The notes under the pieces were generated by a model that saw only the letters and a list, made by a program, of their open reading frames with translations, was not told where the DNA came from and did not search any database. From an uncultured Candidatus Altimarinota bacterium (GTDB lineage Bacteria; Patescibacteriota; Gracilibacteria; BD1-5; UBA2023): a stretch of 40,000 nt of DNA. Numbering within the stretch: position 1 is the stretch's first letter; every line of letters starts with the position of its first letter. The translations under genes and the position numbers were made by a program. The DNA lies in NCBI GenBank assembly GCA_936941205.1, contig CAKZJF010000061.1, forward strand, positions 5,744 through 45,743, given 5' to 3'. This document shows, one piece after another, positions 692-32,542 of this stretch.

Positions 692-3600
692 TTATGCACG
701 CATTCGAATATCTTGATCATTCGCAGCTGGAGCATCAGAAACGCCAGCTATAAAAGCCTGTCGAGTCACTTGTTGTACTGTCTGGACAGATGAAACTTCT
801 TTATGTAAGAATGCTTGGTACGCATTTTCATTCGATCCATAGGTAGTATATTCTTTCGGATTATCGACCCCAAGAATATTTTCATAACTCATATCAAATC
901 AAAGATCTCGTAATTCTAGCATATACGGATGACGCATAATGGTTCGTTCATACATATCTTTCCTCTCTTCAAGGGTCGTTTTTTCAGCAGCTGTCGCACC
1001 TTTCAATTTATCTCGAAGCCATGCAACTATTTCTTTATTAATATGAGAAAATTGTCATTTTTGATACTCTGTATTTCATTGAAATGTTTCAGATTTTTTA
1101 ATACTTTCAAGGTACGGAATAACGGCAGACTTCCAAAAATATTTATAATCAGTCTCATTCATGTCACCATGCTTTGGTACTACATTGATTTTTAAATCAA
1201 GGTAATGCTTTAAGGTATGATATGTAAATCCTGTTGATGAATCAATCGGAGAGTGAGATGATATAAATTGCTCACTATGTGAATATCCCCCCATATTTCT
1301 AATAGATTCATTTGGATGGGCAGAAGAAGGAGCATATTCATGAGTACCATCGAGCTCTCGAATATAACGAGCAAATGTTGTTCGTACAATGGGGTCACGA
1401 TGTTCTTTTGACTGAATAGCAATAAGTGGATCAGAGAGTTGAAGTACTGGGTGAATTATTTTCCCATAATCTAACCAAAAATCATGGATTACTTCATAAA
1501 TATTTGGATTGTTGAGCTGTTCTGATCGATCGAGTTCAATCATTTTAAGACGAGTACGGGCCTGTTCTGGAAGTTTACCAGAATCAACTAACATATCTAC
1601 TACCGTATGAACTACTGACTGATACACTCAAGCAAGAGAATCATTACGTCAGAAAGTAAAAGCATGGTATGGATTTCACTCAGCATCGGTAAAATTCTTA
1701 AAATCATTCAATGTTTCTGGATGAGCCATTTTTGTTACATTACTCATAGACCAAACAAAGGCTGGACCCATGGAGCTTTGTCCAGGCCATTTCCCCATAG
1801 TTCCTTTTATATTTCCAAGCACCAATGACCATTCACCTGACTTAAAACGTGAAATTGTATAAATAGCACGATCCTTTGCTCCAAGTTTTTCACTCGATTC
1901 TCGTTCTCATTTTTGCTTATTTTTCTCGCGAGCCTCACGAACAGTGTTTCCAAATACCCCAGGACCACCCATGGCCTGAATATAGATATTATTCTCATGA
2001 TTAAACTTGAAAAAACGATCAAGGAGAATAATTTCATTTAACGTGTTAGAAGTTTCGGTATTTACTGCAGATTCTCTTTCTTGACAACGCTTATATTCAT
2101 AAGCAGGATCACATCAACAAGCTCGCACAATACGATCAAACCAGATATGTCCTTTTCCACTCAATTTATCAAGATTACTATCCGCATAAAGCTCACCAGT
2201 AGCTTCAAGGGTTACTAACAGTGCAGCCAATAAGTGTTCTGGTCGAGAATTGGAATTCTCTATAATATGAACAATCTCTGCTCGCATACGGGCTCATTTA
2301 AGATTTCGTATACTTCCCTTCTTTTCTTCGATTGTTTTATTTACATGCTTTGAATAATCCATCATCGCATGATTTTCCAGCATACTAAAACCAGGAATCT
2401 TGGATAATTTCTTTGACATCTTAAACATCGATTCTGCAGAGCGGAATTCAGCCCCTTCTTTCAACATATGTTCAAATGTATGAAAAATCATGCCACCTGC
2501 TTTCCAAAAATCATACGGTGTTTTCCAATTCATGACCCTTCCTAGAAAACCGCCATGCATATGAAGATGTGGTGCCTCATATTCTTTTACTGCATCCGGA
2601 TCGGAATCAAGAAGAGAAGTTAACTTATAACCACGTACCCATCTCATTAAATGACGAAAGGACTTGTCAGCATGTTTTGCATATTTCTTTGTTTTCTTAT
2701 ACTTTACTTCACCATCTTCTTTATTTTCACGTTTTACATCTGAAACGGGTTCAAGAATATTTACTGTATTTAATCCAGTAATTTCAACTTTAATAATGGC
2801 ACCATTGGCATTTTTAAATCCAAATATTGGACTTTTTGAACCATCTCACTGTTGCATTTGAAAGCTATTTTCATGAATACTAAGTCCAGGTTCAGAGAAT
2901 GCTTCTAGAAATGAATCCCCATCATGAATCGGTTTCATTCGTGCAAATGTCTCATGTTCTGCTCGAATTCATTCAATAAAACCAGTGAATGGAATATTTG
3001 GATATATTGTTCCGTCTTCTGATTGAAGAGAGATAATTTGTTCTGTATAGTTTATGCTATCCACTTTTAAAATATCATATTCATCTTCTTCTCAAAACTG
3101 AAAATACGTTCCAACCTCAAATGCAATATCACGATGTGATGGATCAAGTGAATCAATTCTTGCTTGAAATGCCTCTGGATTCGAAAGTTCTGGCTCAGGT
3201 GATATCTCTGGAATACGATTGGTTAATTTCATATGCTCAAAAGCTGCCTCATCCAATATGGTTACTTTTCCTCATCGAGACGTATAGGTTTGAAATTCTT
3301 TTACAAGATCAGCATACAAAAGTTCTTCTGGCGGAAGTTGTGGAGCTCAGATTTGTCATCCAGTATAAGAAATACTTGAAACCTGAATATGTTTAATCGT
3401 TTCAGGAGGATTCATAGTATCTACCCCCATAATCTTCATAAAAAACTTTCAGCCCTGGGGGGTTTCATAACAAATAATTCCCCCTCTTTCAAAGTTTTCT
3501 AATCCTTTTATGAGACATCCTTGTCATGAAGGATCTTTCAGAGTTTCACGAATATATGCGTTAAATTGTGAAAAATCTTCAATATCAGGAGGATTCTCAT

Positions 3601-4612
3601 CTTGATTCCCTCCTCGTAATGATTGAAATCATTCATACAATGCTGCATTCAGATCTTCCTTAAAAGAAATAAAGAAATCATCTACCAAAGTATCGAGAAA
3701 ATCAGTGGAATCAGTACGAATAAAGAATTCTGGATTCCCATCTAATAAACTGGATATAAAACGGTCAAGTTCCTCATGGCTTGAGAATACAGATTCATCT
3801 ACTCCTCAAAAATCAGCATCAATTCGTTGAATAATAAGAATTTTTGCTCTCTCAATATCAAGAAAATTATGCTCTATCAAAAATCCAATAGAAACACGGG
3901 GAAGAAGTTCTTGTATGAGGAATTTTTGCTTTTCTCTACTTGAAGTATCAAGAAGACTTAATAAAAAAGAACAATCATCCTCTGTTACTACTCAAGTAAC
4001 TTGAACTTGACGCATAAGACTATGAAATCTATCCAATAAAACAGGATGAATAGAATCTGAAAATCAAAGATGCTCAATAATCCCTGCAATATCACGAGGA
4101 GCAATGCCTCTATCAATTCACAAAACAAATTCACGACGAATATGTATTTTTCTATTATACATCTTCAGTTGCTCAAAGGATAACGTTTTAATGCTTGAAA
4201 GAATAGAATTCTTTTGGGTAGCATCTAATACAAATTCCTTTTGTATAACATGTTCTAATGCCATTCGCTCATTATTAATCTGCAAACCTGCTTGAAAAAT
4301 CATATTTCGAATTCGCTCATTTGAAAACAATGAAGTATCATCGAAAATTCCTGATGGTATAGATATAAAGTCGTTCGTACTTCCAACCGCCTGTTTTTGA
4401 GCAAGAAATTGAGAAGCAAGATTTCTGACATGTAAAATTCCATCTTTTCAGAGAGCTTTATCATAAAATTCTGTAGCCTGATGAGAACAGATAGCAGTAT
4501 CAATCAGTTCAGTAAGGAGTTGATGAGCGGTAGCAAGTGCATCTTTTGAATTCCCCTGAGTTCACTGTTCATTAATCGCTGCATCTCACTGTGTGTGAAT
4601 TCATGTATCCAT
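692..4612 (-). CDS. large hypothetical protein (1306 aa), no signal peptide, no family recognised
   Basis: Track pieces 692-892, 1076-1627, 2294-2647 and 4118-4330 share one minus frame. I checked by hand that no TAA/TAG occurs in that frame between 692 and 4612, only TGA. First ATG at 4612, with an upstream in-frame TAA at 4628-4630. Stop TAA is at 692-694, directly abutting the yraN stop. Confidence 0.75.
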
Positions 4613-4671
4613 ATTGACTTTTTTAAATTATGATTTTATTATATATAAAATATATAGGAAATGCAAATAAA

Positions 4672-4695
4672 AAATCCCCTTATACAAGGGGATTT
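4672..4695 (-). terminator. intrinsic terminator hairpin after the lipoprotein gene
   Basis: Perfect 10-bp stem aaatcccctt / aaggggattt with a 4-nt loop, flanked by A/T tracts, 20 nt past the stop at 4716. Confidence 0.7.
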
Positions 4696-4715
4696 TTTAT
4701 ATATAAAACTCTCAA

Positions 4716-4976
4716 TTACATTGCAGTACCAGTAGCAGTAGCACCAGAAGCTTCTACAGTAGAAGTTGTAGTTGTAGTTTCAACCATACCAGTTGCAACC
4801 TCAACCTTAACTTCAGCACCAGTAGTAGTTGTAGTTTCAACCATACCAGTTGCAACCTCAACCTTAACTTCAGTACCAGTAGCAGTAGCACCAGAATTTG
4901 TATCAACTGGAGTTACTTTAGCACCACATGATGCAAGAAGAAGAGTAGCAGTAGCAACAAGAAGTAGAACTTTCAT
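4716..4976 (-). CDS. small secreted lipoprotein with a tandem 19-aa Thr/Val-rich repeat
   Basis: 86-aa ORF. Signal peptide MKVLLLVATATLLLASC carries a lipobox (LLAS-C). Contains two copies of E-V-K-V-E-V-A-T-G-M-V-E-T-T-T-T-T. TAA stop is followed by a terminator. Confidence 0.7.
   Translation of the reverse strand: MKVLLLVATATLLLASCGAKVTPVDTNSGATATGTEVKVEVATGMVETTTTTGAEVKVEVATGMVETTTTTSTVEASGATATGTAM
4771..4884. repeat. 2 x 57-bp direct tandem repeat inside the lipoprotein gene
   Basis: Units 4771-4827 and 4828-4884 differ at 2 positions. The repeat is in frame (19 codons per unit). Confidence 0.9.
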
Positions 4977-5093
4977 AACGAAGAAAATAATATAAGTAAA
5001 TGTGAGTCGAGTATATAGAATGGTTTCCTAAATGCAACTATTTTTTCGAGTTTTTTTACAAGTTTTGCACATATTATTAACTATACATTATTA

Positions 5094-5101: not shown

Positions 5102-5302
5102 ATACAATAGAATAAGTATTGGCTCTGGGGAGGGAATAAGAAAAAGAAGGGATCAATAAAAAAATAATTTGATTTTTCTCTCTATTTTACTAGAATTCTC
5201 CCCAATAACCTCATGGAGTAATAGTGCACATACTCTTTCAGGTATACTTTTTCCGTATAGGACGAATGTATCTGAAATTTGGCACTTTACTCGAAAGAAC
5301 AC

Positions 5303-5335
5303 AACCTTTCTTGTACTTATGTGCAACGAAAGGTT
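5303..5335 (+). promoter_or_regulatory. terminator-like hairpin in the 5' leader (possible attenuator)
   Basis: aacctttc (5303-5310) pairs with gaaaggtt (5328-5335). A T-rich run follows up to ATG 5358. Its loop (tatgtgca 5318-5325) can pair instead with tgcacata at 5225-5232. Confidence 0.3.
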
Positions 5336-5357
5336 TTTATTTTATTACTCTTTTTTT

Positions 5358-6722
5358 ATGTCAAAAAAGCTTGAACTTCTTATGCCTGCAGGGAATCTTG
5401 AAAAACTCAAATACGCGCTCGCCTATGGTGCAGATGCTGTATATGCTGGAGTACCTATGTTCTCACTTCGTGCCCGTGAAAATCAATTTACGTGGGAAAC
5501 ACTCGCAGAAGGAGTTGAATATTGTCATTCCCGTGGAAAAAAAATCTATTTTACTGCGAATATTTACGCACATAATACGAAAATTAAGCCGTTTATGGCT
5601 GCTTTTGAAAAAATGCAAGCACTCAAACCAGATGCTTATATTATGAGTGATCCTGGACTTATCTATCTTGTACGAAAAAATTTTCCAGAAGCAGAAATTC
5701 ACCTCTCTGTACAGGCAAATAATACAAACTGGGCACAGGCTGAATTCTGGAAATCACTTGGAATCACTCGTATAATCCTTTCTCGAGAACTCTCTCTGAA
5801 AGAAGTAAAAGAAATTCATGAAATGTGTCCTGATATCGAGATTGAGTTCTTTGTCCATGGGGCTATCTGTATGGCATATTCTGGACGATGTCTCCTTTCT
5901 AACTACTTCTCACATCGAGATCCAAATCAGGGAACCTGTTCTCATTCATGTCGTTGGGAGTATAAAGTATTCAAAAAAGATGCAAGTGAGGAGGAGCTCT
6001 ATGATTCTACTGGGCGTCCAGAGGATTATATTCCACTTCAAGGGGAATTTTACCTTGAAGAACGAGAACGTCAGGGAGAAATGATTCCAATCGATGAAGA
6101 TGAATATGGAACTTATATTATGAACTCTCGAGATATATGTCTTCTATCCTATATGCAGGAACTTGCCGATGCAGGTGTTATCTCATTTAAGGTAGAAGGA
6201 AGAAGCAAGACAGTAAACTATCTTGCTTGAGTAGGACGTGCATATCGACCAGCTCTTGATGCAGTGGAAAGTGGTGAAAAATACAATGATGAAGAACTCG
6301 CTGAAGAAGTTTTTGCTATATCAAATCGTGGATATACTCCTGGTTTCCTTGTAGGAAATCCTGGAGAAAAGGCTATCTACTTTGAAAAAAATCTCGATCT
6401 CCACGAAGAGGATCCAGTAGGTATCGTAAAAGGCTATGATGAAACTCGAAAAATGGCTCGTATCGAAGTAAAGAATCGTATCGATATCGGAGATGACCTC
6501 GTACTCCTTTCTCCTTCTCAACGATTCAAGTTTGCTCTCACAGAAATCATTGCTGACCCCATCCTCCTTGGAGATGTGAAATCAGATAAAGCCAGTTCTA
6601 CTGAAGTTCCTGCCAATGGAGAATCTCGAGAATCAGGACATGGAGGACATATTGATCTCTGGATAAATGTTCCGGAAAAACCAGCTGACTATGCTATCAT
6701 TCGAAAGAAACGTACACTCTAG
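5358..6722 (+). CDS. trhP: U32 family protein, YegQ/TrhP-like (tRNA U34 hydroxylation family)
   Basis: 454 aa. Track pieces 5169-6230 and 6264-6722 share a frame and are joined through TGA 6228-6230. MSKKLELLMPAGNLEKLKYALAYGADAVYAG...SDPGL...LSRELSL...FVHGAICMAYSGRCLLSNY...DPNQGTCSHSCRWEY...GTYIMNSRD follows my recollection of E. coli YegQ along its length. TAG stop plus terminator. Confidence 0.85.
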
Positions 6723-6739
6723 AAATTGCTAAAAATAAA

Positions 6740-6766
6740 AATCCCCATTAATCTATAATGGGGATT
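6740..6766. terminator. bidirectional terminator hairpin between convergent genes
   Basis: 11-bp stem aatccccatta / taatggggatt with a 5-nt loop. Lies between the trhP stop (6722) and the stop of the small minus-strand ORF (6770). Confidence 0.7.
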
Positions 6767-6769
6767 TTA

Positions 6770-6979
6770 TTAACTTCTTCTTTGATAGTGCGATTTGCCG
6801 TACATAGGAGCACATGTACATTCTATTGCCTCACACACCGTACATGCCTTATGGATATAGAGTTTTGCAACTCGTCCTCAAAACTGTCCTCGTAAGTTAT
6901 CAATAGTAGATTCTTGTTCCTCGGGAGAAAGAGTTCGAATTCTTTTTAATTCAGCAAAAGCTGCTCGTTCTAATTGCAT
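6770..6979 (-). CDS. small Cys-containing hypothetical protein (69 aa)
   Basis: ATG at 6979, TAA at 6770-6772, one in-frame TGA. Sequence MQLERAAFAELKRIRTLSPEEQ...ACTVCEAIECTCAPMYGK. No family recognised. Fills the gap and ends at the shared terminator. Confidence 0.35.
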
Positions 6980-7108
6980 AGTACCAATCTTATAATATAA
7001 TCTATTTTAATGTATTATATATACATTAAAATATCAACTCCGCAAATAATACGAAAATATCAAGAAATGCAATAATTTTTTCAAAGTTGTTATATCATTG
7101 TTACAGTT

Positions 7109-8110
7109 TTACTCACAAAAGAGTTGTCTACATCTATTATCAAATATAAGATCAGGGAATCAATTCTGATAGATATTATATGCAAATAGATGTATAAAAA
7201 TCAAAAGAATTCCAAGCTGCAAGATATGTGCTTGATTGAGTCCAAATAGTCATTGTTTTGACTCCAATTTCCAGATAAATGGAAGAAATAATGTCATACA
7301 AAAAAGCGCAAGCAAATTGCTATAATTTTCATTTATATAATACTGTAAGATAAAGAAAAGTATCCCAATCCCCATACCATGGAGAATATGTCCTATTTTT
7401 GTTCATGGAACTGTTTTTGGATCAGTAATCATGAAAAATATAAATACAAAGAAACCAGGATTAAAATATATCAGAGCCTGCTGCCAGGTTGTTTCCTCTG
7501 TAAAGAATGCAAATATGAACGCTTGAGTCAAAAAAAATGAAAGTGTCGTTATCCATATGGGTATATGCATAAGGCGCTGTACACGAGTCGATATCAAAGC
7601 ACCCAGAAGAAATATAGCTATATATATGAGGATCGTTTTTTCAGGGGTTGAGTAGATTCCCCATTGGAGTGGGTTTGTCCAAGCAATGAGAGGAAAAAAT
7701 ATAAGACAGAACGTAACCGCCATATTGGATGGATTCATAAAATGTCGCCCTTCCTGTGTTGTGAAAGTATATTTTCAGAGAATCGCAAGTGCACCAGCAA
7801 GGATATAGATGATGATTTCATCCGATCGGAGAAAGAATGATATACCCCATAAGGCATTAAATGCACCAGAAAATCGTATACTTCCTACTCAATATTTATA
7901 TATTTGAATAGCAATTTCTAGTATTAAAATTGTTCAAATAGTTGCGAGAATTTTATAAATATCAAGGTAAAATCCGTAATAGAGAACCCCTATCGATAAT
8001 ACAAGAGCGACAATGGCCGTTTGATTGGTTTGAGCATTATACCTGAGTCATTGAATAATAGCCCTAAAAATCGCCTGTACATCTGAAAATATCTTTGAAG
8101 ATGAAATCAT
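7109..8110 (-). CDS. polytopic membrane protein with NqrB/RnfD-family-like motifs
   Basis: 333 aa, containing track ORF 7403-7738. About 8-9 hydrophobic helices. Motifs HFMNPSN and FFMITDPKTVP resemble the FNPA / FFMATDP(V)T motifs of the NQR2/RnfD/RnfE family. TAA at 7109-7111. Confidence 0.55.
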
Positions 8111-8190
8111 ACTCTGATAGGGAAAAGAAATATTGTTCGACCATATATAATCAAAACTATATAAAATATAATCTCATATAGTTTTTGGAA

Positions 8191-8751
8191 TTAAACCCGT
8201 AATAATCCACGAAATCCACGAACGGCATAATAGGAATCTGCACCATTATGGTAAGTAAATACTTGATTATAACGTCGATCGCAAAAGAGTGCTCATCCCC
8301 TTTCTCGAATAGATGAAGGGGTATATATCCAACTCGAGGTTTTTACATCAAATTCACCCAACTGTTGGAGTTCTCGATACTGTTCTTCAGTTAAAATCTC
8401 TATACCGATATCAGTAGCCATATCGGTAACGGTACTCTCTGGTTTATGTTCTTTTCTGGATTCCAAAGCCTCTCGATCATAACAAAGACTTCTTCGACCT
8501 TTTGGAGACTCTGGTGAACAATCGCAAAATATATATTCTTCTGTTGTTGTATCATATCCAATAATATCAGGTTCACCACCCGTTTGCTCCATTTTAAGAA
8601 GTGAAGAAAGTGTATTGATATTGTTTTCCATTCTTGTCTGAATATCCTGCCAATCGAGATTCTCATGACGAGACATATTTTTTTCAAAACGAGTTTTTAG
8701 GAGCTGAATCAATTCAGTTTGTTGTTCGAAAGAAAAAGTTAATGAGGCCAT
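8191..8751 (-). CDS. DUF4256 domain protein
   Basis: 186 aa. ...TGGEPDIIGYD...YIFCDCSPESPKGRRSLCYDREALESRKEHKP...LTEEQYRELQQLG.FD.KTSSW..TP..IRERG-TGA-ALFCDRRYNQVFTYHNGADSYYAVRGFRGLLRV matches the conserved DUF4256 pattern as I recall it. The last 33 residues appear only when TGA is read as Gly. Confidence 0.7.
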
Positions 8752-9018
8752 ATGTTGCTATGAATGAATATTCTATAGAAATAGTATATGCTGGGATTAT
8801 AAAATACAAGTTTTCAATAATCGAACCTAAAAAAATCTCCTCAAAGCCACAAAGTGACGATGAAGAGCTCATATTAAGCGAGTATGGTGAAAGAAACTTC
8901 AAAGGTTACATTCGTATATCTATCATAAAATGCGCAAGCACCGATATATAAACAGATGGACCACACAGTTTGTCTCTCTTTGTAGGGAAGAGGTAAGAAG
9001 ACTTGAAGAAAGAAAAAA

Positions 9019-9038
9019 GTTCTGACAAGTTCTGACGG
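9019..9038. repeat. tandem 10-bp direct repeat (agttctgaca agttctgacg)
   Basis: Seen directly in the sequence, about 150 bp upstream of ATG 9190, inside the 438-bp intergenic region. Confidence 0.8.
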
Positions 9039-9189
9039 AAGGAAATTAGTACAGAATTATCTCAATGAGATAGAAAATGGTTCTCATTTATCATGAGTAT
9101 ACACGAGGTTAATTATAGATAATTAATAATATTGCATAATTATAAATATTATTTATAATAATAATGTCACTAACCATAGGAGAATTGAC

Positions 9190-9501
9190 ATGAAAAATGT
9201 TTGGCCAACTGACTGGCGTTATATCGGAGGTATCATCCTCAGTTGCATCGCCACTATTGCTATAGGTTATTTTCTATGGCAATGGATTCCAGAATTGTTG
9301 AAATGGTTCATTGAGATTCTCGGATACCCCTTCTGGGTGGTGTTCACGAAGTTTCTCAAGATCGAAATCAATCAGTTCGAGGCCTTCTGGGCATTCTTTG
9401 GCATCGCATGTATTGCAATGGTGATTGTCGGGAACTTCACACCCGTGCGGGTTTCTCAACAAGTAACCGTCACAAAAAACAAAGAAGAAACGGAAGGCTG
9501 A
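9190..9501 (+). CDS. small two-helix membrane protein; foreign-looking ORF whose apparent stop is TGA
   Basis: 103-aa ORF with AGGAG (9178-9182) 7 nt before the ATG. About 44% GC by hand count. No internal TGA; Trp is TGG throughout. TGA 9499-9501 is followed by a terminator hairpin. Under table 25 the frame runs on to TAA 9649-9651, across the hairpins and into the tRNA-Arg gene. Confidence 0.5.
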   Translation: MKNVWPTDWRYIGGIILSCIATIAIGYFLWQWIPELLKWFIEILGYPFWVVFTKFLKIEINQFEAFWAFFGIACIAMVIVGNFTPVRVSQQVTVTKNKEETEG

Positions 9502-9514
9502 ATTTCTCCACTGC

Positions 9515-9545
9515 GAGGCTGATTCACATCAGCCTCCTCTTTTAT
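9515..9545 (+). terminator. intrinsic terminator after ORF 9190-9501
   Basis: 9-bp GC-rich stem gaggctgat / atcagcctc with a 4-nt loop, then ctcttttatt. Confidence 0.7.
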
Positions 9546-9551
9546 TATTAA

Positions 9552-9578
9552 AATAATCCCTTATTTAAAGGGATTATT
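9552..9578 (-). terminator. terminator hairpin downstream of tRNA-Arg
   Basis: 11-bp stem aataatccctt / aagggattatt with a 5-nt loop. A T-run follows on the minus strand. Confidence 0.55.
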
Positions 9579-9593
9579 TCGTTTATTGACAAA

Positions 9594-9671
9594 TGGTGCA
9601 ACCAGCAGGGCTCGAACCTGCGACCTCCTCCTTCGCAGGGAGGCGCTCTAATCCAACTGAGCTATGGCTGC
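9594..9671 (-). tRNA. tRNA-Arg (anticodon GCG), CCA encoded
   Basis: Reverse complement is GCAGCCA-TA-GCTC...GAGC-G-CCTCC-CTGCGAA-GGAGG-AGGTC-GCAGG-TTCGAGC-CCTGC-TGGTTGC-ACCA. It folds as a cloverleaf with a 7-nt anticodon loop C-T-GCG-A-A. Confidence 0.85.
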
Positions 9672-19343: not shown

Positions 19344-20594
19344 TTATTCGGTTGCTCGTGTTTTCATAGCTTCAAGAATCCGCTCCATAGCGACAATATA
19401 TGCACCCGTACGGAGCATAACATTATGTGATGCTGATGATGCAAGAACTCACTTAAGAGCTTGGTTCATTTTGAGTTTCAATTTCTCCTGTACTTCTTCA
19501 CGGCTCCAGAAATAATTCATGCCATTTTGAACCTGTTCAAAATAACTTACTGTAACACCACCAGCATTTGCGAGAATATCTGGAATTACAGGGATAGAAC
19601 GTGAAAAAAGAATCGTATCAGCATCAGGAGTAACCGGTCCATTCGCAAGTTCAAGAAGAAGTTTTGCTTGGATTTTATTCGCATTTTCTACAGTAATTTG
19701 ATTTTCAAGCGCTGCTGGAATAAGAATATCACATGGGAGCTCAAGAAATTCTGCATTTGTATAATGTGTTCCTGAGATATGATCTTGTACTGATTTTTTT
19801 GCAGCTTTCAGTGTTTCAATAGCAGTAATATCAATTCCTGAAGTATCGTAGATTGCTCCATGAGAATCAGAAACACCAACTATAGTGGCCCCTGCCTCTT
19901 TCAGAAGATGTGCCATAACCAGTCATGCATTCCCTGCCCCCTGAATCATAACCTTCTTTCCTGCAATATTTTCATTCTTGCTTTCAAGGTAGGAAGTAAG
20001 CACATAAACGCCCCCCTGGGCAGTTGCTGTATCACGTCCAAGAGAACCACCAATAGAAACTGGTTTTCCAGTAAATGTCCCTGGAGTCCAGCTTCCTACG
20101 AGTTTTGAATATTCATCAACCATCCATGCCATAATCTTTCCATTCGTATTCACATCGGGAGCAGGAACATCTTGAGTTGGACCAAGATATTTATAGAGTT
20201 TTCGAACATATCCTCGAGAGAGTTCTTCAAGTTCACGTTCTGAAAGTTCTTTTGGATTCACAATGATACCTCCCTTTCCTCCACCAAGTGGGAGATCAAG
20301 GGTTGCACATTTAATACTCATCCAAGTAGAGAGGGCCATTACTTCATCTTTATTCACATCTTGATGATACCGAATTCCTCCCTTATATGGACCACGTGCA
20401 CCATTGTGCTGACTACGATATCCTGTAAACATACGAGTACTTCCATCATCCATAACGACTGGGATAGAAACTTCAATAATACGTTCAGGAGAGAGGGCAA
20501 GAGTGAATTCATGATCATATTTTGGAGCAAGATATTCATATGCTGCTTTCATCTGAGTTCGTGCACTTTCAAATGGATTAACTGACTGTGACAT
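19344..20594 (-). CDS. gdhA: glutamate dehydrogenase (Glu/Leu/Phe/Val dehydrogenase family)
   Basis: 416 aa. Track pieces 19449-19916 and 19923-20594 share a frame. Catalytic region GPYKGGIRYH...LPLGGGKGG. Rossmann motif QGAGNA-TGA-LVMAHLL. TAA at 19344-19346. Confidence 0.92.
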
Positions 20595-26234: not shown

Positions 26235-26247
26235 ATTTAAAACAAAA

Positions 26248-26326
26248 TGGAGCGGGGGACCGGGTTCGAACCGACACACCCAAGGGTTGAAGCCTTAGTA
26301 CACTCACTCTTTTATGTTACCCCCGC
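26248..26326 (-). tRNA. tRNA with anticodon UCA (reads UGA) and glycine identity elements: tRNA-Gly(UCA)
   Basis: Reverse complement is GCGGGGG-TA-ACAT-AAAAGAGTGA-GTGT-AC-TAAGG-CTTCAAC-CCTTG-GGTGT-GTCGG-TTCGAAC-CCGGT-CCCCCGC-T-CCA. The 7-nt loop is C-T-TCA-A-C. G1:C72, C2:G71, G3:C70, discriminator U73 and C35 are all present. Confidence 0.85.
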
Positions 26327-26435
26327 AAAAGAAATAAGCACAATATGAATGCGCAGGCATTGTATAAAAACTCCAAAAAATGTCAAAAAAAATAGATTTT
26401 CTGGAAAAAACTCTTTTTCTCTATACACTTGACTT

Positions 26436-28127
26436 ATGCAATCGAATCTCATAAAAATCATAGAAGAAGTTCTCTTTTCTCTCGAGCTTGATAGCTCTAT
26501 TGTTTCAAAAGATGATTTTCATAAGTTTAAAAATCAAATATTTTCAAAATATAAAATTCCATATGGGATATCTGGGATAGATTTTATAGAACGGTATCGA
26601 GGACTTATAAAAGAGGGAAAGCTCCCGGAAAATATTCGAATATGGAAACTTCTCAGAAAACGAGCTGTTCGATCTCTTTCAGGAGTGTCTGTTATATCAC
26701 TTCTTACAAAATTCTGGTGATGCCCTGGAAAATGTATATATTGTCCAACCTATGAAAATCTTCCAAAAAGCTATATCACGAATGAGCCAGCAGTCATGAG
26801 GGCTGAATTGAATGAATTTAATAGTGTAAAACAAGTTCAAAATAGACTCAGATCACTTGAACTTACATGACATACTATAGAAAAATGTGATGTACGAATT
26901 ATAGGCGGGACTTGGAGTGTATATCCGAAAGAATACAAAGATGCATTTATTCGAGATATTTACGATGCACATACTACATTTGAAGCATTGACTCCTTTTA
27001 TAGAAAATGTCGAAGTTGGCGAAGATACTTTTGCACGATTTAAGGTTCGTGAGGGATATAAAATGCAACAATCCAAAACATTAGAAGAAGCACAAGAAAG
27101 GAATCAATCAGCAAAATCTCGTGTAATATGAATGGCAATTGAAACTCGACCTGACTGGATAAATCTTTCAGAGATTGTCGAACTTCGCCACTATTGAGTT
27201 ACTCGTGTCGAAATAGGATATCAAACTACCATCGATTCAATTAACGAACTCAATAAACGTGGCCATGGAAATAAAGAATCTATTGAAGCAACTCGGCTTT
27301 TAAAAGATGCAGGATTCAAGGTGGTGGCTCATATTATGCCGAATTTAGTATGATCAACACCTGAACTTGATAAAGAAAGTCTTGCTCGAGTATTTTCTGA
27401 TAGTAGTTTCCGTCCTGACGAACTCAAACTCTATCCAATGGTAGTTACGCCAAATTCAGAACTTACAGAAATATGGAAAAATGGGTGATATACTCCCTAT
27501 AATGATGAAACACTTATTACTCTCATGGCAGAACTTCAATCATATATACCTGAATATGTTCGACTCAACCGAATGTACCGTGATATTCCAGCAAATGAAA
27601 TACTCGCTGGATCGAAGCTCGCCAACCTTCGCCAAGTAACTGACGAACGAATGGCGAAGTTATGAGTGTACCGAAAAGATATTTCTGCTCGTGAAATTCG
27701 TGCAAAATGAAATAAACCAGAAAATGCTATCCTTGATGAGAATTTTTATGAGGCAAGTGGCTGACATGAATATTTTCTTCAATTTATTGATGACGAAGAT
27801 AGAACCGTATTTTCACTTCTCCGCCTTCGAGTACCTTCTCAATATTTTACAAAAGAAAAACATCCAATGGATGTACTCCAAAATGCCGCTATTATCCGAG
27901 AAGTTCATACATTTTGAGATCAATTACCAATTGGTTCAAAGGCTGATGGAACATGACAACATATGGGATTTGGGAAACGACTTATTGAGCGGGCTGAAAC
28001 CATTATTCGAGAAAAATATCCCACCATTGAGAAGATTGCAGTGATATCAGGAATATGAGTTCGTGGGTATTATGAAAAACGTTGATATCAAAAAGAAGGT
28101 GACTACATGATACGGTATATCCAATAA
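26436..28127 (+). CDS. elp3: bacterial Elp3 homologue (radical SAM + GNAT acetyltransferase; tRNA U34 carboxymethylation family)
   Basis: 563 aa. Radical-SAM cluster motif FW-TGA-CPGKCIYCP. ...RIIGGTWS..., IETRPDWI, RVEIGYQTT..., then a C-terminal GNAT part (...IREVHTFGDQLPIG...HMGFGKRLIERAE...). Track ORFs 26436-26720 and 27691-28044 lie in and near it. TAA at 28125-28127. Confidence 0.88.
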
Positions 28128-28129
28128 AA

Positions 28130-28153
28130 AAACGCATCCCGAAGGATGCGTTT
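28130..28153. terminator. bidirectional terminator between elp3 and the glucosaminidase ORF
   Basis: 10-bp stem aaacgcatcc / ggatgcgttt with loop cgaa. Lies 2 nt after the elp3 stop and 11 nt after TGA 28165-28167. Confidence 0.8.
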
Positions 28154-28164
28154 ATAAGTGAAGA

Positions 28165-28656
28165 TCAGTCCAGCTTAGCAAGACCATAAGAACGAATAAT
28201 ATTTGTAACTCGTATATGGTATTCTGGATTCTCAGAATATGCTCCTAGGTGCTTTACAAGCCCTATGGAGTCTGTATTTCCAAGATATCGCCTGAACGAT
28301 CTGTAGGCACGGTGCTCAAGAAGATTTGTGAGATAATACCGTATATTATCCATATAGGACAAAAACGGCCGAATCTCTTTCTTGCGCATGATTCCGAAAA
28401 GGTTTCGACGCTCTATGGCTGTTGGATGTTTCCCCCACCCACTTTCAAGAGCTGCTTGCGCAACTATCAAGCTGGTTGGTATCTGCATCGCATCTTCGCC
28501 CATCTCTTCTTTTGCTTCCTCAATCTGTGGAGTTATCCACTCGATAAAGGAAGTAGTATGTCTTGGAGTTTCTAAGTTCTGCGCGGAAGCAGAAAATATA
28601 CTTAAAAATAAACCAAGGAACAGGAAGAAATTTGAGGGTCTACATCGACATTCCAT
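28165..28656 (-). CDS. secreted glucosaminidase-domain (GH73 / Bax-like) peptidoglycan hydrolase; foreign-looking ORF whose apparent stop is TGA
   Basis: 163-aa ORF with a signal peptide ending FSASA-QN. Has the LIVAQAALESGWGK...NLFGI core of the mannosyl-glycoprotein endo-beta-N-acetylglucosaminidase domain. AGGAG (rc of 28664-28668) lies 7 nt before the ATG. GC reaches 50-53% in sampled central lines. No internal TGA. Under table 25 the frame would continue 54 codons to TAA at 28003-28005, antisense into elp3. Confidence 0.75.
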   Translation of the reverse strand: MECRCRPSNFFLFLGLFLSIFSASAQNLETPRHTTSFIEWITPQIEEAKEEMGEDAMQIPTSLIVAQAALESGWGKHPTAIERRNLFGIMRKKEIRPFLSYMDNIRYYLTNLLEHRAYRSFRRYLGNTDSIGLVKHLGAYSENPEYHIRVTNIIRSYGLAKLD

Positions 28657-28780
28657 TCTACAACTCCTACTATTGAAGGGGTTGTACTCTATCCATAAAA
28701 AATGAATTGCAAAACGTTTTTTGTAAAATTTTTGTGAATTCTTCGTTTCTTCCCATTATAAAGGGGATAAGCAAATTTCT

Positions 28781-28808
28781 CTTTCGACAACTTTCGACAA
28801 CTTCGACA
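28781..28808. repeat. three tandem ~10-bp direct repeats (ctttcgacaa ctttcgacaa cttcgaca)
   Basis: Seen directly in the sequence, 125-152 bp upstream of the glucosaminidase ATG and just beyond the trxB terminator. Confidence 0.85.
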
Positions 28809-28817
28809 TATATTCAA

Positions 28818-28855: not shown

Positions 28856-29782
28856 TTAGTGACCAATACGAAGTATATCCTCATGAACACTATGAGCTGC
28901 CAAACATCATTCAGCAGCTGACATAATGGTTTGACGGAATTTATTACTATTGGTTGTTACATCTCAAGCAGCATATAATCAGGGTACTGTTGTTTCTTGC
29001 CGTTTATCAACTACAAGACATCATTCTGAATCTTTTTCTGGAGAAAGGACTTCTACTATATCAGTAATAGGAGATGAACCTACGGCAACAAATACACCAT
29101 CAAGAGAAAGAGTTTCTCATGTAGTAAGAAGCGCGCTATTTACACCCATCATATTTCATACAATTTCGGAAATTTGAGTAGTATAGTGGAATATGATATT
29201 TGCTTTCATATTTGCCTTTTGAATCCATATATCTTCAGCACGAGCCCTATCAGAGCGAACTATGATATGCACTTCTTTTGCAATTTCTGAGAGATACAAG
29301 GCCTCAGTAATAGCAGTATTTCATGCTCCAACAACCGCGACAGTAAGATTTTTATAAAAACTTCCATCACAGGTTGCACAATATGAAACTCCTTGTCCAT
29401 AGAATTCTTTTTCACCAGGAACACCAAGCATTTTATAAATATTACCAGTTGCAAGAATTATACGCTTTGCATGATATATATCGCCTTTCATTGTTTGAAC
29501 TTGAAACATATCCTCAGCAACCTTCGACACTGTTTCGACACGGTCTTGTAGAAATTTAGAACCAGAGGATTCAGCATGTTGACGAAAATTCTTCATAATA
29601 TCTCAACCAGTCGAAGAAAGAGTTCCTGGATAATTTTCAACACAATGACTGGTCGCAAGGGCTCATCCTGGCATTTCTCCAATAATTAAATTGGAGAGTG
29701 TATACCGTGAAGCATACATTCATGCGGGAAATCCTGCACTTCCTGCTCCTATAATTATAAGATCATATATGTGGTCTTTCAT
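28856..29782 (-). CDS. trxB: thioredoxin-disulfide reductase
   Basis: 308 aa. N-terminal DLIIIGAGSAG, redox centre YCATCDG, second Rossmann motif VAVVGA-TGA-NTA, C-terminal GLYAAGDV. Contains track ORF 29321-29596. TAA at 28856-28858. Confidence 0.9.
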
Positions 29783-31018: not shown

Positions 31019-32542
31019 TTATCAACGATAGCTAATAGCTTCGGCAATATGAGGTAAGAGGATATGTTCACTTGCATCAAGATCAGCAATAGTTCGAGCA
31101 AGTCGTAAAATTCGGAAATAGACTCGAGTGGAAAGTCATAGCCGATTTATGGCATCCTGAAGAAATTTCTCTCCATCATCACCCAGTATACAATATGTTT
31201 CAATTTCTGCATTACTCATTTCTGCATTATAGGTTCTATTCGTATTTATAAATCTCTGTAACTGAATTGTACGCGCTCATAAAATTTTTTCTTGCATATA
31301 GACTCGAGTATGAATCGATGCTTTATTCTTATATTTCTCAAAATCTTCTGGTTTTACCCGGGGAACTCGAATCATGATATCAATACGATCTAGCATAGGT
31401 CATGAGAGCTTTGATTTGTATCGTTCAATTTGAGATTGAGAACATGTACAACTCTTTTCCTTATCTCATAAATATCAACAAGGACAGGGATTTAAAGCTC
31501 AAATAAGCATAAATTTCGCAGGATATCGACAACTCGCATGAACACGATTAATGGTAATAACTCCATCTTCAAGTGGTTGTCTCAAGGTTTCCAGAACATT
31601 CTTATCAAATTCAAGAAATTCATCGAGAAATAAAACTCATTTATGTGCTAATGATATTTCGCCAGGACGTGAATCTCGGCCTCATCCAATTATAGAAGCT
31701 TCGCTTGCAGTATGATGAATGCTTCGAAATGGTCGATCTATTATAAGTGGCTGAGTCCTAGAAAGAAGTCCCGCAACCGAATAAATTCCTGACACCTCTA
31801 TGATTTCATCGAGACTCATTGGGGGGAGTAATGATGCTAATCATTTTGCAAGCATCGTTTTTCAGGATCCTGGTGGTCACTCGAGAAGAATATTATGTCC
31901 ACCAGAAGCTGCAATAAGTATTGATCTTTTTGCATGCTCTTGTCCTATAATACTTTCTATATCGACTCATATTTCTTTTTTACGAGAAAATTGTTCAAAA
32001 GAAGTAACGGAAGAAGCAGGAATAGGAATTTCTCATACCAGAATAGAAATTGTTTCCTGTAGACTCTCAACTGGAATAATATGAACATCGGGGACAATGC
32101 CAGCCTCTATGCTTGCATCTTTAGGAAGAAAAATGTACTTTATTTTATTTTCTCGTGCAAAAAGTACACTTGGAAGGATTCCATCAATAGAGCGAATCTT
32201 TCCATTTAACGCAAGTTCTCAAATAAATATACTCTCTTTAAAAAATTCTTTTTTAAAGAGAAATTCATGCGAGAGAATGCCAAGAGCAATAGGAAGATCA
32301 AAGCTTGGTCATTTTTTTCGGACATCTGCTGGAGCCAAATTCACTGTAATCCTTTTTGATCCTGGAAAAGTAAATCCAGCATTTTTAATAGCACTTCGAA
32401 CTCGTTCTCTACTTTCCTGAACAGCCATATCTCAGAGTCCAACAATAGTAAATGCTGACAGACCTGTAGCCACATCAACCTCTACAGAAACAGGAACTCC
32501 AGAAAGACCTGTAACCGATACTGAATGAATACACTCAACCAT
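31019..32542 (-). CDS. comM: YifB/ComM family Mg-chelatase-like AAA+ ATPase
   Basis: 507 aa. N-terminal Lon-protease-like domain (VEVDV..GL..FTIVGL-G-D.AV.ES.ERV). Walker A LLE-G-PPGSGKTMLA, Walker B GVLFLDEF. Zn-finger-like NPCPC-G-YLG. C-terminal LS.R...[11 protein letters not shown]. Invisible in the standard track, where only antisense ORFs 31800-32084 and 32097-32420 appear. Confidence 0.9.

Follow-up and report, generated by a model that had tools for sequence, protein, structure and literature searches.

A cell-wall hydrolase gene in standard-code format on the chromosomes of bacteria that read UGA as glycine

Introduction

A change in the genetic code is usually viewed as all-or-none across a genome: once UGA has come to mean glycine, every gene is expected to drift toward UGA, and foreign genes that end in TGA are expected to be mistranslated. 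The locus described here raises the question of how a gene can reside on such a chromosome and read as though it were written for the standard code. It lies in a stretch of 40,000 nucleotides from an uncultured Candidatus Altimarinota bacterium (contig CAKZJF010000061.1; the whole stretch is referred to below as the window) and holds an open reading frame (ORF) for a small, predicted secreted glucosaminidase of family GH73, which has no TGA among its glycine codons, is led by a canonical Shine-Dalgarno (SD) sequence and ends on a TGA.

Comparison of this gene with its relatives, and with a second gene of the window that shows the same features, leads us to favor, with moderate confidence, the view that the GH73 gene belongs to a resident subfamily of UGA=Gly bacteria that is kept in standard-code format by purifying selection, and that it was not recently transferred.

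Results

The genome of the window reads TGA as glycine

The window clearly comes from a genome that reads TGA as glycine. Under the standard code (translation table 11), ORFs of at least 100 codons span just 0.40 of the window; when TGA is taken as a sense codon, long ORFs emerge that contain up to 26 in-frame TGAs each. Codon totals for 26 long window genes come to 236 TGA, 586 GGN and 95 TGG. Alignment of TrxB (28856-29782, reverse strand) with PDB 3f8p places seven of its ten in-frame TGAs at glycine and none at tryptophan, the glycine positions including those of the GGQL, GGGxxA and AAGD motifs.

The window also encodes a tRNA with anticodon UCA (Table 1), which is 76-79 nt long and matches Rfam RF00005 at 43.5 bits as an ordinary tRNA. 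Its acceptor stem (G1:C72, C2:G71, G3:C70) and discriminator base U73 fit tRNA-Gly identity as recognized by bacterial glycyl-tRNA synthetase, and this tRNA is likely the UGA decoder of the genome. A near-consensus promoter for it (TTGACA, 16 nt, TACAAT) is found at 26386-26359. The combination of a UGA, a hairpin 11 nt further on and a UCA tRNA brought selenocysteine insertion under consideration; this candidate was rejected because the tRNA is ordinary, TGA aligns with glycine, and the hairpin with its T-run is a terminator.

Two reports bear on the type of code involved: RF2 is reported in 'Gracilibacteria' only where UGA has not been reassigned, and CGA and CGG are also predicted to be reassigned in Absconditabacteria (Shulgina and Eddy, PMC8629427). 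The normal use of CGA in the window argues against the CGA-reassigned Absconditabacteria type. As a separate observation, the final sense codon of a ComM/Mg-chelatase-like gene (31019-32542, reverse strand) is a TGA directly followed by TAA; this gene has 17 in-frame TGAs in total, some of them inside its Walker A motif.

An intact glucosaminidase gene with atypical composition and signals

The GH73 ORF matches the Pfam Glucosaminidase profile (PF01832) with 57.2 bits against a cut-off of 30.2, across positions 9-122 of 123. Its AlphaFold model (pLDDT 89.9) has the GH73 (lysozyme-like alpha) fold, and GH73 enzymes, namely Auto, FlgJ and AtlA, give its best structural matches in the PDB, with 3fi7, 3vwo, 2zyc, 5dn4 and 7qfu at the top of the Foldseek results (probability 1.00). 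Glu71, invariant across 18 family members, aligns with the AQAxxES(G) motif (AQAILES/AQAIVES of 5t1q and 7qfu), whose glutamate has a catalytic role known from work on FlgJ, Auto and AtlA; further along, YSENPEY aligns with YATDPNY (the YAxDxxY motif). Judged by sequence and model, the gene thus appears to be an intact GH73 N-acetylglucosaminidase and a predicted peptidoglycan hydrolase. It shares domain, fold, catalytic glutamate motif and a small, secreted, single-domain form with known GH73 enzymes (the FlgJ C-terminal domain, Listeria Auto, Enterococcus AtlA and the SagB-like enzyme of S. aureus). Unlike these, it has a conserved M-E-x-R N-terminus, no cell-wall-binding or flagellar domains, and only 19-24% identity to solved structures. 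The conserved M-E-x-R falls within the predicted signal peptide, and the codon for Arg4 is CGA.

The gene stands apart from the rest of the window in several respects. Its GC content is 0.423 against 0.350±0.029 in long genes (the 97.7th percentile of 492-nt windows), ranging from 0.33 to 0.53 in 60-nt steps, and its GC content at third codon positions (GC3) is 0.380 against 0.247±0.045; codon usage deviates with a z of -2.7. None of its nine glycine codons is TGA. An AGGAG or GGAGG site precedes just two of 34 window genes, this one and ORF 9190-9501. From its sequence, the locus reads as a one-gene cassette composed of a putative -10 box, a leader of ~30 nt with AGGAG, the ORF and a terminator; the leader and 5' coding region yielded no conserved RNA structure (0 pairs with RNAalifold, nothing above threshold in Rfam). 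The gene is identical in three strains, and its neighbors are housekeeping genes only (trxB and elp3).

These results bear out what a preliminary description of the window, made from the letters alone, had listed: a secreted glucosaminidase in a UGA=Gly genome, raised GC, a perfect AGGAG at a 7-nt spacing, glycine codons free of TGA, a TGA 11 nt before a strong terminator, a 54-residue read-through into elp3, and the same anomalies in ORF 9190-9501. The codon-usage deviation that it proposed to compute was also found. Its explanation, a gene captured from a standard-code bacterium or phage, fared less well and is taken up below.

The terminal TGA lies at the natural end of the protein

The terminal TGA coincides exactly with the natural C-terminus of the protein, because the C-terminal L-x-x-[YF]-D of the family aligns with the end of solved GH73 domains; most of the nearest ~40 relatives likewise end 0-3 residues from Asp163 of the window protein. 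The hairpin that begins 11 nt beyond this TGA (28130-28153; dG -17.5 kcal/mol, z -5.2) is followed by a T-run (28126-28132). Were the TGA read as glycine and the transcript to continue, translation would extend for 54 codons to TAA 28003-28005, overlapping elp3 by 125 nt, with the junction ...SYGLAKLD-G-SSLINASFGMRFF.

Two assemblies from other samples (L001 and L002; L numbers denote the loci compared here) have the same gene order and are 99.83-99.88% identical to the window over 16 kb. The preliminary description had considered that the contig might be chimeric at this point; it is not, because these two independent assemblies show the same arrangement. The lone indel in the 16 kb is one extra T within the terminator T-run, 7 T in the window and 8 T in both siblings. 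The extra T shifts the read-through frame, which in the siblings runs for 21 residues to TAG in place of 54 to TAA, and leaves the elp3 stop untouched. The read-through tails of two further relatives, L007 and L008, are unrelated to that of the window. To judge from these comparisons, the tail is not conserved and is clearly dispensable.

Most placed relatives of the gene reside in recoded genomes

The nearest ~40 relatives of the GH73 protein are small GH73 proteins, many of which share the N-terminus M-E-x-R-x-C. We read the DNA context of ten relatives (L003, L007, L008, L009, L011-L014, L077 and L078), and eight of these lie in TGA-recoded genomes, among ordinary recoded genes. The UGA=Gly code (code 25) is plain in L007, L008, L009, L011, L012, L013 and L014 (GC 0.21-0.43), in which TGA occurs at glycine motifs and coding density rises from 0.04-0.39 under table 11 to 0.72-0.89 with TGA as sense. 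L003 (GC 0.54) is TGA-recoded too, with CreD in a single frame that includes three in-frame TGAs. A reading of TGA as tryptophan (code 4) was rejected for the AT-rich loci, in which the KsgA GPGxG, RecQ PTGxGKS and MurG GGxTGGH motifs carry TGA at glycine. L078, a 4.5-kb contig, was placed in neither code class; the last codon of its member (3647-4255, GC 0.58) is likewise TGA, ahead of a hairpin with a T-run, and translation of this member probably begins further upstream (MGNPRCCRS...).

The standard-code format is shared across the subfamily

The window gene forms a subfamily with the members in L007, L008, L009, L012, L013 and L014, that is, in seven recoded genomes. TGA is absent from the glycine codons of every member (0/9, 0/9, 0/10, 0/8, 0/9, 0/10 and 0/11), giving 0/66 in the pooled set against a background of 43%; host-wide, TGA makes up 20-79% of glycine codons in these genomes, and per-locus binomial P values range from 0.1 to 3e-8. 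In L009, L012 and L014 the GH73 gene is by far the top TGA-depleted outlier. Out-of-frame TGA trinucleotides occur at about background levels, somewhat lower in frame +2, and the avoidance is therefore specific to the codon and its decoding. Avoidance of the trinucleotide as a motif, as for a nuclease site, was rejected on the same count. The preliminary description had held that code-25 orthologues with internal TGA-Gly codons and a TAA or TAG stop would speak against capture. The outcome was a third one: many code-25 genomes have orthologues, and four of the seven end in TAA or TAG, but none has an internal TGA.

The other elements of the format are equally widespread. An SD core precedes all seven copies and nearly no other gene in those loci; Absconditabacteria (SR1) are described as SD-scarce and without a CCUCC anti-SD (PMC10783764), and no rRNA 3' end that would show the anti-SD was present within the loci examined. 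Every copy has a -10-like box ~35 nt before its start and a hairpin right after its end, and most of these hairpins lead into a T-run. With glycine left out, codon usage remains atypical (z -2.6 to -5.4 in loci with an adequate background); the codon-usage z as such reaches -7.7 in L009. A natural control is provided by a member of another GH73 branch in the code-25 locus L011, in which four of nine glycine codons are TGA, no SD is present and GC3 is host-like.

CGA supplies a further element. The codon is used freely in the window, L013 and the code-25 locus L079 (about 100-134 per 10^4 codons), so that its presence in the window GH73 gene is not anomalous. In L009, L012 and L014 it is found 0, 0 and 4 times per 10^4 codons, yet the GH73 genes of these loci (6562-7032, 8001-8471 and 2354-2836, respectively) contain one CGA each, at a family Arg (or Lys) position. 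The Arg4 codon is CGA in eight of nine members, and there is conservation at the nucleotide level as well, of NNTCGA at +6 to +13.

The codon at the natural end of the family is TGA in three of the seven genes (window, L007 and L008), TAA in L012, L013 and L014, and TGG followed by TAG in L009. Where it is TGA, a hairpin starts 11-24 nt beyond it, forming strong terminators in the window and L007 and a weaker one in L008, and the next TAA or TAG lies 54 codons away in the window (21 in its siblings), about 18 in L008 and about 590 in L007. The stop position thus behaves as in a standard-code lineage, in which the three stops are interchangeable.

Convergent with the GH73 gene of L007 is an ORF of 199 aa (2770-3369, reverse strand) that is TGA-free (0/9), has AAGAGG upstream and ends in TAA; its GC is 0.35 in a contig of 0.25, and it has no PHROG, NCBIfam or PADLOC match. 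This ORF may represent a third family in the same format.

A second cassette has kept the format since the split of two organisms

The other SD-led gene of the window, ORF 9190-9501, encodes a product of 103 aa with a charged C-terminus and two hydrophobic stretches that by eye look like membrane helices; no PHROG family matches it. As in the GH73 cassette, an AGGAG stands 7 nt before the start, no glycine codon is TGA (0/7), GC3 is high (0.53) and the terminal TGA lies 13 nt before a terminator, beyond which read-through would run antisense across a tRNA-Arg gene. Members of its family are 63-88% identical and all end in ...EETEG. The orthologue in L079, a locus in which TGA makes up 34% of glycine codons, has 0/9 TGA, a GC3 of 0.50 and the same TATAGGAGAATTGACATG. 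It too ends on TGA, and compensatory changes are seen in the stem of its terminator.

The whole cassette (9178-9597 in the window, 9744-10450 in L079), taken from ~290 nt upstream to ~95 nt downstream, is 76% identical between the two. The two ORF 9190 proteins are 66% identical (0.76, 0.85 and 0.52 at the three codon positions) and the Elp3 proteins of the same pair 65% (0.66, 0.82 and 0.40). Because this divergence equals that of the elp3 orthologues, the ORF 9190 cassette is about as old as the split of the two organisms and has kept its format throughout; on this comparison, its inheritance looks vertical.

Several observations concern the upstream region of ORF 9190. A segment of ~220 nt (8901-9121), which ends in a TATAAT-like box and matches no Rfam family, occurs once in the window and twice in L079 (9744-9972 and 10462-10687) and in L081, flanking the ORF 9190 orthologue; the segment may represent a promoter or regulatory module that has been repeated, or else a small mobile element. 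Within it, a 10-bp tandem repeat, AAGTTCTGAC, is present in two copies at 9017-9036, ~160 nt upstream of the ORF, in the same relative place as the repeat upstream of the GH73 gene; the second copy of the segment in L079 has TTGCGACAG twice. An operator shared by the two SD-bearing cassettes was considered and rejected: their upstream regions are no more alike than shuffled sequence, and the best local alignment, which falls on the 10-bp repeats, is not significant.

How a standard-format gene would fare in a UGA=Gly cell

On the favored explanation, evolution of the GH73 subfamily follows the rules of the standard code, with no UGA-Gly, a canonical SD, CGA and interchangeable stops. In its own cell, the terminal UGA would be decoded as glycine and the ribosome would run on into the terminator. 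Most transcripts would end in the T-run; on these terminated transcripts, which contain no in-frame stop, ~14 extra residues (GSSLINASFGMRFF) would be added, after which ribosome rescue would be required. Transcripts that pass the terminator would add a junk tail, of 54 aa here and 21 aa in the siblings. Since the TGA sits exactly at the domain end, the enzyme domain should be unharmed in either case.

The unproven step, which we infer, is that the format persists because a standard-type apparatus (RF2, anti-SD, CGA=Arg) has to be able to translate the gene. Such an apparatus might be that of a standard-code partner or prey cell, or that of the gene's own cell when its translation has been altered by a TGA-free phage. 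Other sources of selection for the format are also options, among them cycling through TGA-free phages or an unusual form of translational optimization.

Several points weigh against a selected, resident format. The sample is small, the nine cassette loci read as DNA comprising seven of the GH73 gene and two of ORF 9190. Within the window, the absence of TGA from nine glycine codons is weak evidence alone (P=0.049), and some host genes also reach a GC of 0.40-0.44, so that the GH73 value is within range. In L013, GC3 deviates in the opposite direction. The member in L077 resides in an apparently standard-code genome, and transfer across codes has accordingly happened at some time. The neighbor-joining tree of the family is star-like, leaving vertical and horizontal histories of the GH73 gene inseparable. 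Finally, likely highly expressed genes of the window also shun TGA (see below), and expression thereby contributes something.

A possible lysin shuttle between phages and chromosomes

One alternative, which we consider unlikely, is that the gene is a lysin that moves back and forth between host chromosomes and the TGA-free phages of Gracilibacteria or Absconditabacteria, and so never gains TGA. Phages of the required kind exist: those of these hosts are free of in-frame TGA and have a further stop close behind their TGA stops, and are proposed for this reason to work in hosts of either code (Liu et al. 2023, PMC10746230). PHROG endolysin families match the GH73 protein at about 1e-11, and the ORF 9190 product, with its helices read by eye, has a holin-like topology. 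The same study, though, reports prophages of these hosts to be TGA-rich (PMC10746230), and a scan of IMG/VR together with a tblastn search of INPHARED found no close phage relatives, only a branch at 25-33% identity from standard-code phages; a PADLOC run gave no match. No phage, insertion-sequence or mobile-element genes stand beside any of the seven chromosomal GH73 copies, and the two 'lysis-like' genes of the window lie 19 kb apart, not in an adjacent holin-endolysin cassette.

Recent capture from a standard-code donor as an alternative

The preliminary description regarded the anomalies as un-ameliorated features of a gene recently captured from a standard-code bacterium, its TGA a relic stop now read through. 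Raised GC and GC3, atypical codon usage, the SD and a TGA before the terminator are all what such a gene would show, and the L077 member speaks for it as well; horizontal transfer into Absconditabacteria is documented, with read-through at UGA suggested to garble foreign genes (Moreira et al., PMC8080830). We nevertheless find recent capture distinctly unlikely. A word-indexed search returned just three relatives, and an exhaustive HMMER search of 1.84 billion representatives returned 595 matches at E<=0.001, 45 of them at E<=1e-10, with no protein above 47% identity besides the gene itself (best non-self match 45-47%). A scan of GTDB species-representative genomes found Proteobacteria matches only, at 28-29% identity, and a metagenome scan with a 6-sequence alignment returned only the distant standard-code branch. 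The donor clade that HMMER and a phylogeny had been expected to identify did not emerge from these searches or from the star-like tree.

What is known of the relatives is also hard to square with capture. Eight of the ten lie in recoded genomes and the gene is present in at least seven code-25 genomes; the subfamily copies are mutually divergent (33-46% identity) and share one signature, which would require seven independent recent imports from unsampled donors. The GC of the GH73 gene partly tracks that of each host genome, and the ORF 9190 family has diverged like a housekeeping orthologue yet kept its TGA end. Like un-ameliorated transferred genes and genomic islands, the cassettes have atypical GC3 and codon usage and foreign-looking translation signals; unlike them, they come with no donor or mobile-element features, and their signature persists across deeply diverged orthologues.

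High expression of a native gene as an alternative

A native gene under very high expression might avoid a slow or ambiguous UGA and acquire an SD, its terminal TGA then being a tolerated stop-loss. A change of TAA to TGA takes one transition and the tail is dispensable. In the window, host genes 5169-6722 and 19344-20594 shun TGA (1/32 and 2/37 glycine codons), without an SD or raised GC3, which suggests that the highly expressed genes of this organism disfavor TGA. As a sole cause, high expression is not supported by L009, in which the ribosomal protein and elongation factor genes (rpsB, tsf and S1) use TGA freely, for 45-58% of glycine, have no SD and a GC3 of 0.08-0.10; the GH73 gene of the same locus has a GC3 of 0.25 and the SD AAGGAGG. 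Use of CGA in genomes nearly or wholly devoid of it is the reverse of codon optimization, and a TGA end in 3/7 GH73 and 2/2 ORF 9190 genes is too frequent for independent stop-losses. Taken as a full account, high expression seems to us improbable.

Possible genes for another translation system, and possible gene decay

A more specific idea, and in our estimation a very unlikely one, is that the GH73 gene and ORF 9190 are 'export-format' lysis genes, meant to be translated by a standard-code apparatus. The sigma-70-type -10 box, canonical SD, lack of UGA-Gly, CGA=Arg, UGA stop and intrinsic terminator would all fit such a role. In one setting, the genes would act in a prey or host cell of this epibiotic or predatory lineage after nucleic-acid transfer, the Sec system of that host delivering the hydrolase to the host's own periplasm; in another, they would act in their own cell when a TGA-free phage imposes standard-type decoding, causing premature lysis and so abortive infection. 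In an uninfected carrier, the SD would be useless, and read-through of the UGA into a non-stop transcript would hold down the amount of lytic products.

That the gene is decaying or silent, the TGA stop-loss and non-stop transcript making it effectively a pseudogene in this strain, is highly improbable: the tail is polymorphic and no in-frame stop precedes the terminator, but the ORF is intact, identical in three strains, retains all family-invariant residues and a confident GH73 fold, and its layout of promoter, SD and terminator is conserved from genome to genome.

The upstream repeat and other features of the locus

Upstream of the GH73 gene stand the tandem repeats of TTGTCGAAAG that the preliminary description had likened to the sites of a direct-repeat-binding regulator (Table 1). 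The repeat is real, but such a regulator finds no support: the repeat is absent from the homologous loci examined and appears lineage-specific, and a search for the motif elsewhere in the window gave 4 matches against 3.3 expected by chance. Its TGTCGA core equals codons 3-4 of the GH73 ORF. An upstream ORF of 42 codons with a TTG start (28689-28817, reverse strand) reads MNICRSCRKLSK... through the repeat and ends 33 nt before the GH73 ATG; its product resembles the GH73 N-terminus, MECRCR. A leader peptide is one possible explanation; duplication of the 5' end and chance are others.

The convergent elp3 gene probably starts at ATG 26436, because the ORF taken from the first start (26247) overlaps the UCA tRNA; counted over that longer ORF (26247-28127), it has 15 in-frame TGAs, and it has no SD. 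Elsewhere in the window, a TGA-free ORF (4630-4995, 121 aa, GC3 0.12) includes a tandem repeat at 4764-4886 whose unit is 57 bp long (2.2 copies, 95% match) and in which periods of 6 and 30 bp are nested.

Table 1. Features of the GH73 locus and its sister cassette, in window coordinates.
Feature	Position	Strand	Remarks
GH73 (Pfam Glucosaminidase) ORF	28165..28656	-	163 codons plus terminal TGA; 163 aa
Predicted Sec signal peptide, residues 1-25, MECRCRPSNFFLFLGLFLSIFSASA|QN	28582..28656	-	read from the sequence
Shine-Dalgarno AGGAG, 7 nt before ATG	28664..28668	-	read from the sequence
Putative -10 box TAGAGT, with a T-rich tract before it	28686..28691	-	proposed from alignment with TATAAT boxes of orthologues
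Tandem repeat TTGTCGAAAG, 2.9 copies, period 10	28781..28808	-	Tandem Repeats Finder (TRF) score 49
Terminal TGA at the natural C-terminus of the family	28165..28167	-	standard-code stop; Gly in this genome
Intrinsic terminator, 10-bp stem, UUCG loop, then T-run	28123..28153	-	hairpin 28130-28153
Read-through tail, Gly plus 53 residues	28003..28164	-	if TGA=Gly and transcription continues; antisense into elp3
Elp3-like radical-SAM gene, convergent neighbor	26436..28127	+	ordinary host gene; stop TAA 28125-28127
tRNA, anticodon UCA	26248-26326	-	tRNA search; 1.9 kb from GH73 gene; called tRNA-SeC by ARAGORN
Sister cassette	9178..9536	+	AGGAG 9178-9182, ORF 9190-9498 (103 codons), TGA 9499-9501, terminator 9515-9536

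Discussion

We found no report in the literature of chromosomal genes of code-25 bacteria that are kept in standard-code format. The closest precedent is provided by the code-11-compatible phages of these hosts, which have the same kind of coding sequence without in-frame TGA in a UGA=Gly host and use TGA at stops with TAA or TAG downstream. Theirs are whole phage genomes, whereas the present genes are single chromosomal ones amid TGA-rich host genes, in at least seven genomes; and here the backup stop stands 18 to about 590 codons away, or is absent before the terminator. Phages with recoded stop codons, of the type described by Borges and colleagues in 2022, reportedly gate their lysis genes by code mismatch. 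The GH73 locus resembles these in the mismatch between the code of the gene and that of the cell, and in the lysis-type nature of the gene, a peptidoglycan hydrolase; it differs in its reversed polarity, the cell being recoded and the gene in standard format, in its chromosomal location, and in that no suppressor tRNA or release-factor switch is known for it.

Two unrelated chromosomal families, a secreted wall hydrolase and a small membrane protein, have retained the standard-code format in UGA=Gly bacteria that are deeply diverged from one another. The format includes an SD unused by the rest of the genome and a terminal UGA that the cell should not read as a stop. The combination of TGA-free, SD-led and TGA-terminated is a simple signature with which all code-25 genomes can be mined. 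If selection maintains the format, some genes of episymbiotic or predatory bacteria would be constrained by a translation system other than the normal one of the cell, which, if true, bears on the interactions of these bacteria with hosts and phages, on the handling of non-stop translation and on how code boundaries shape gene flow.

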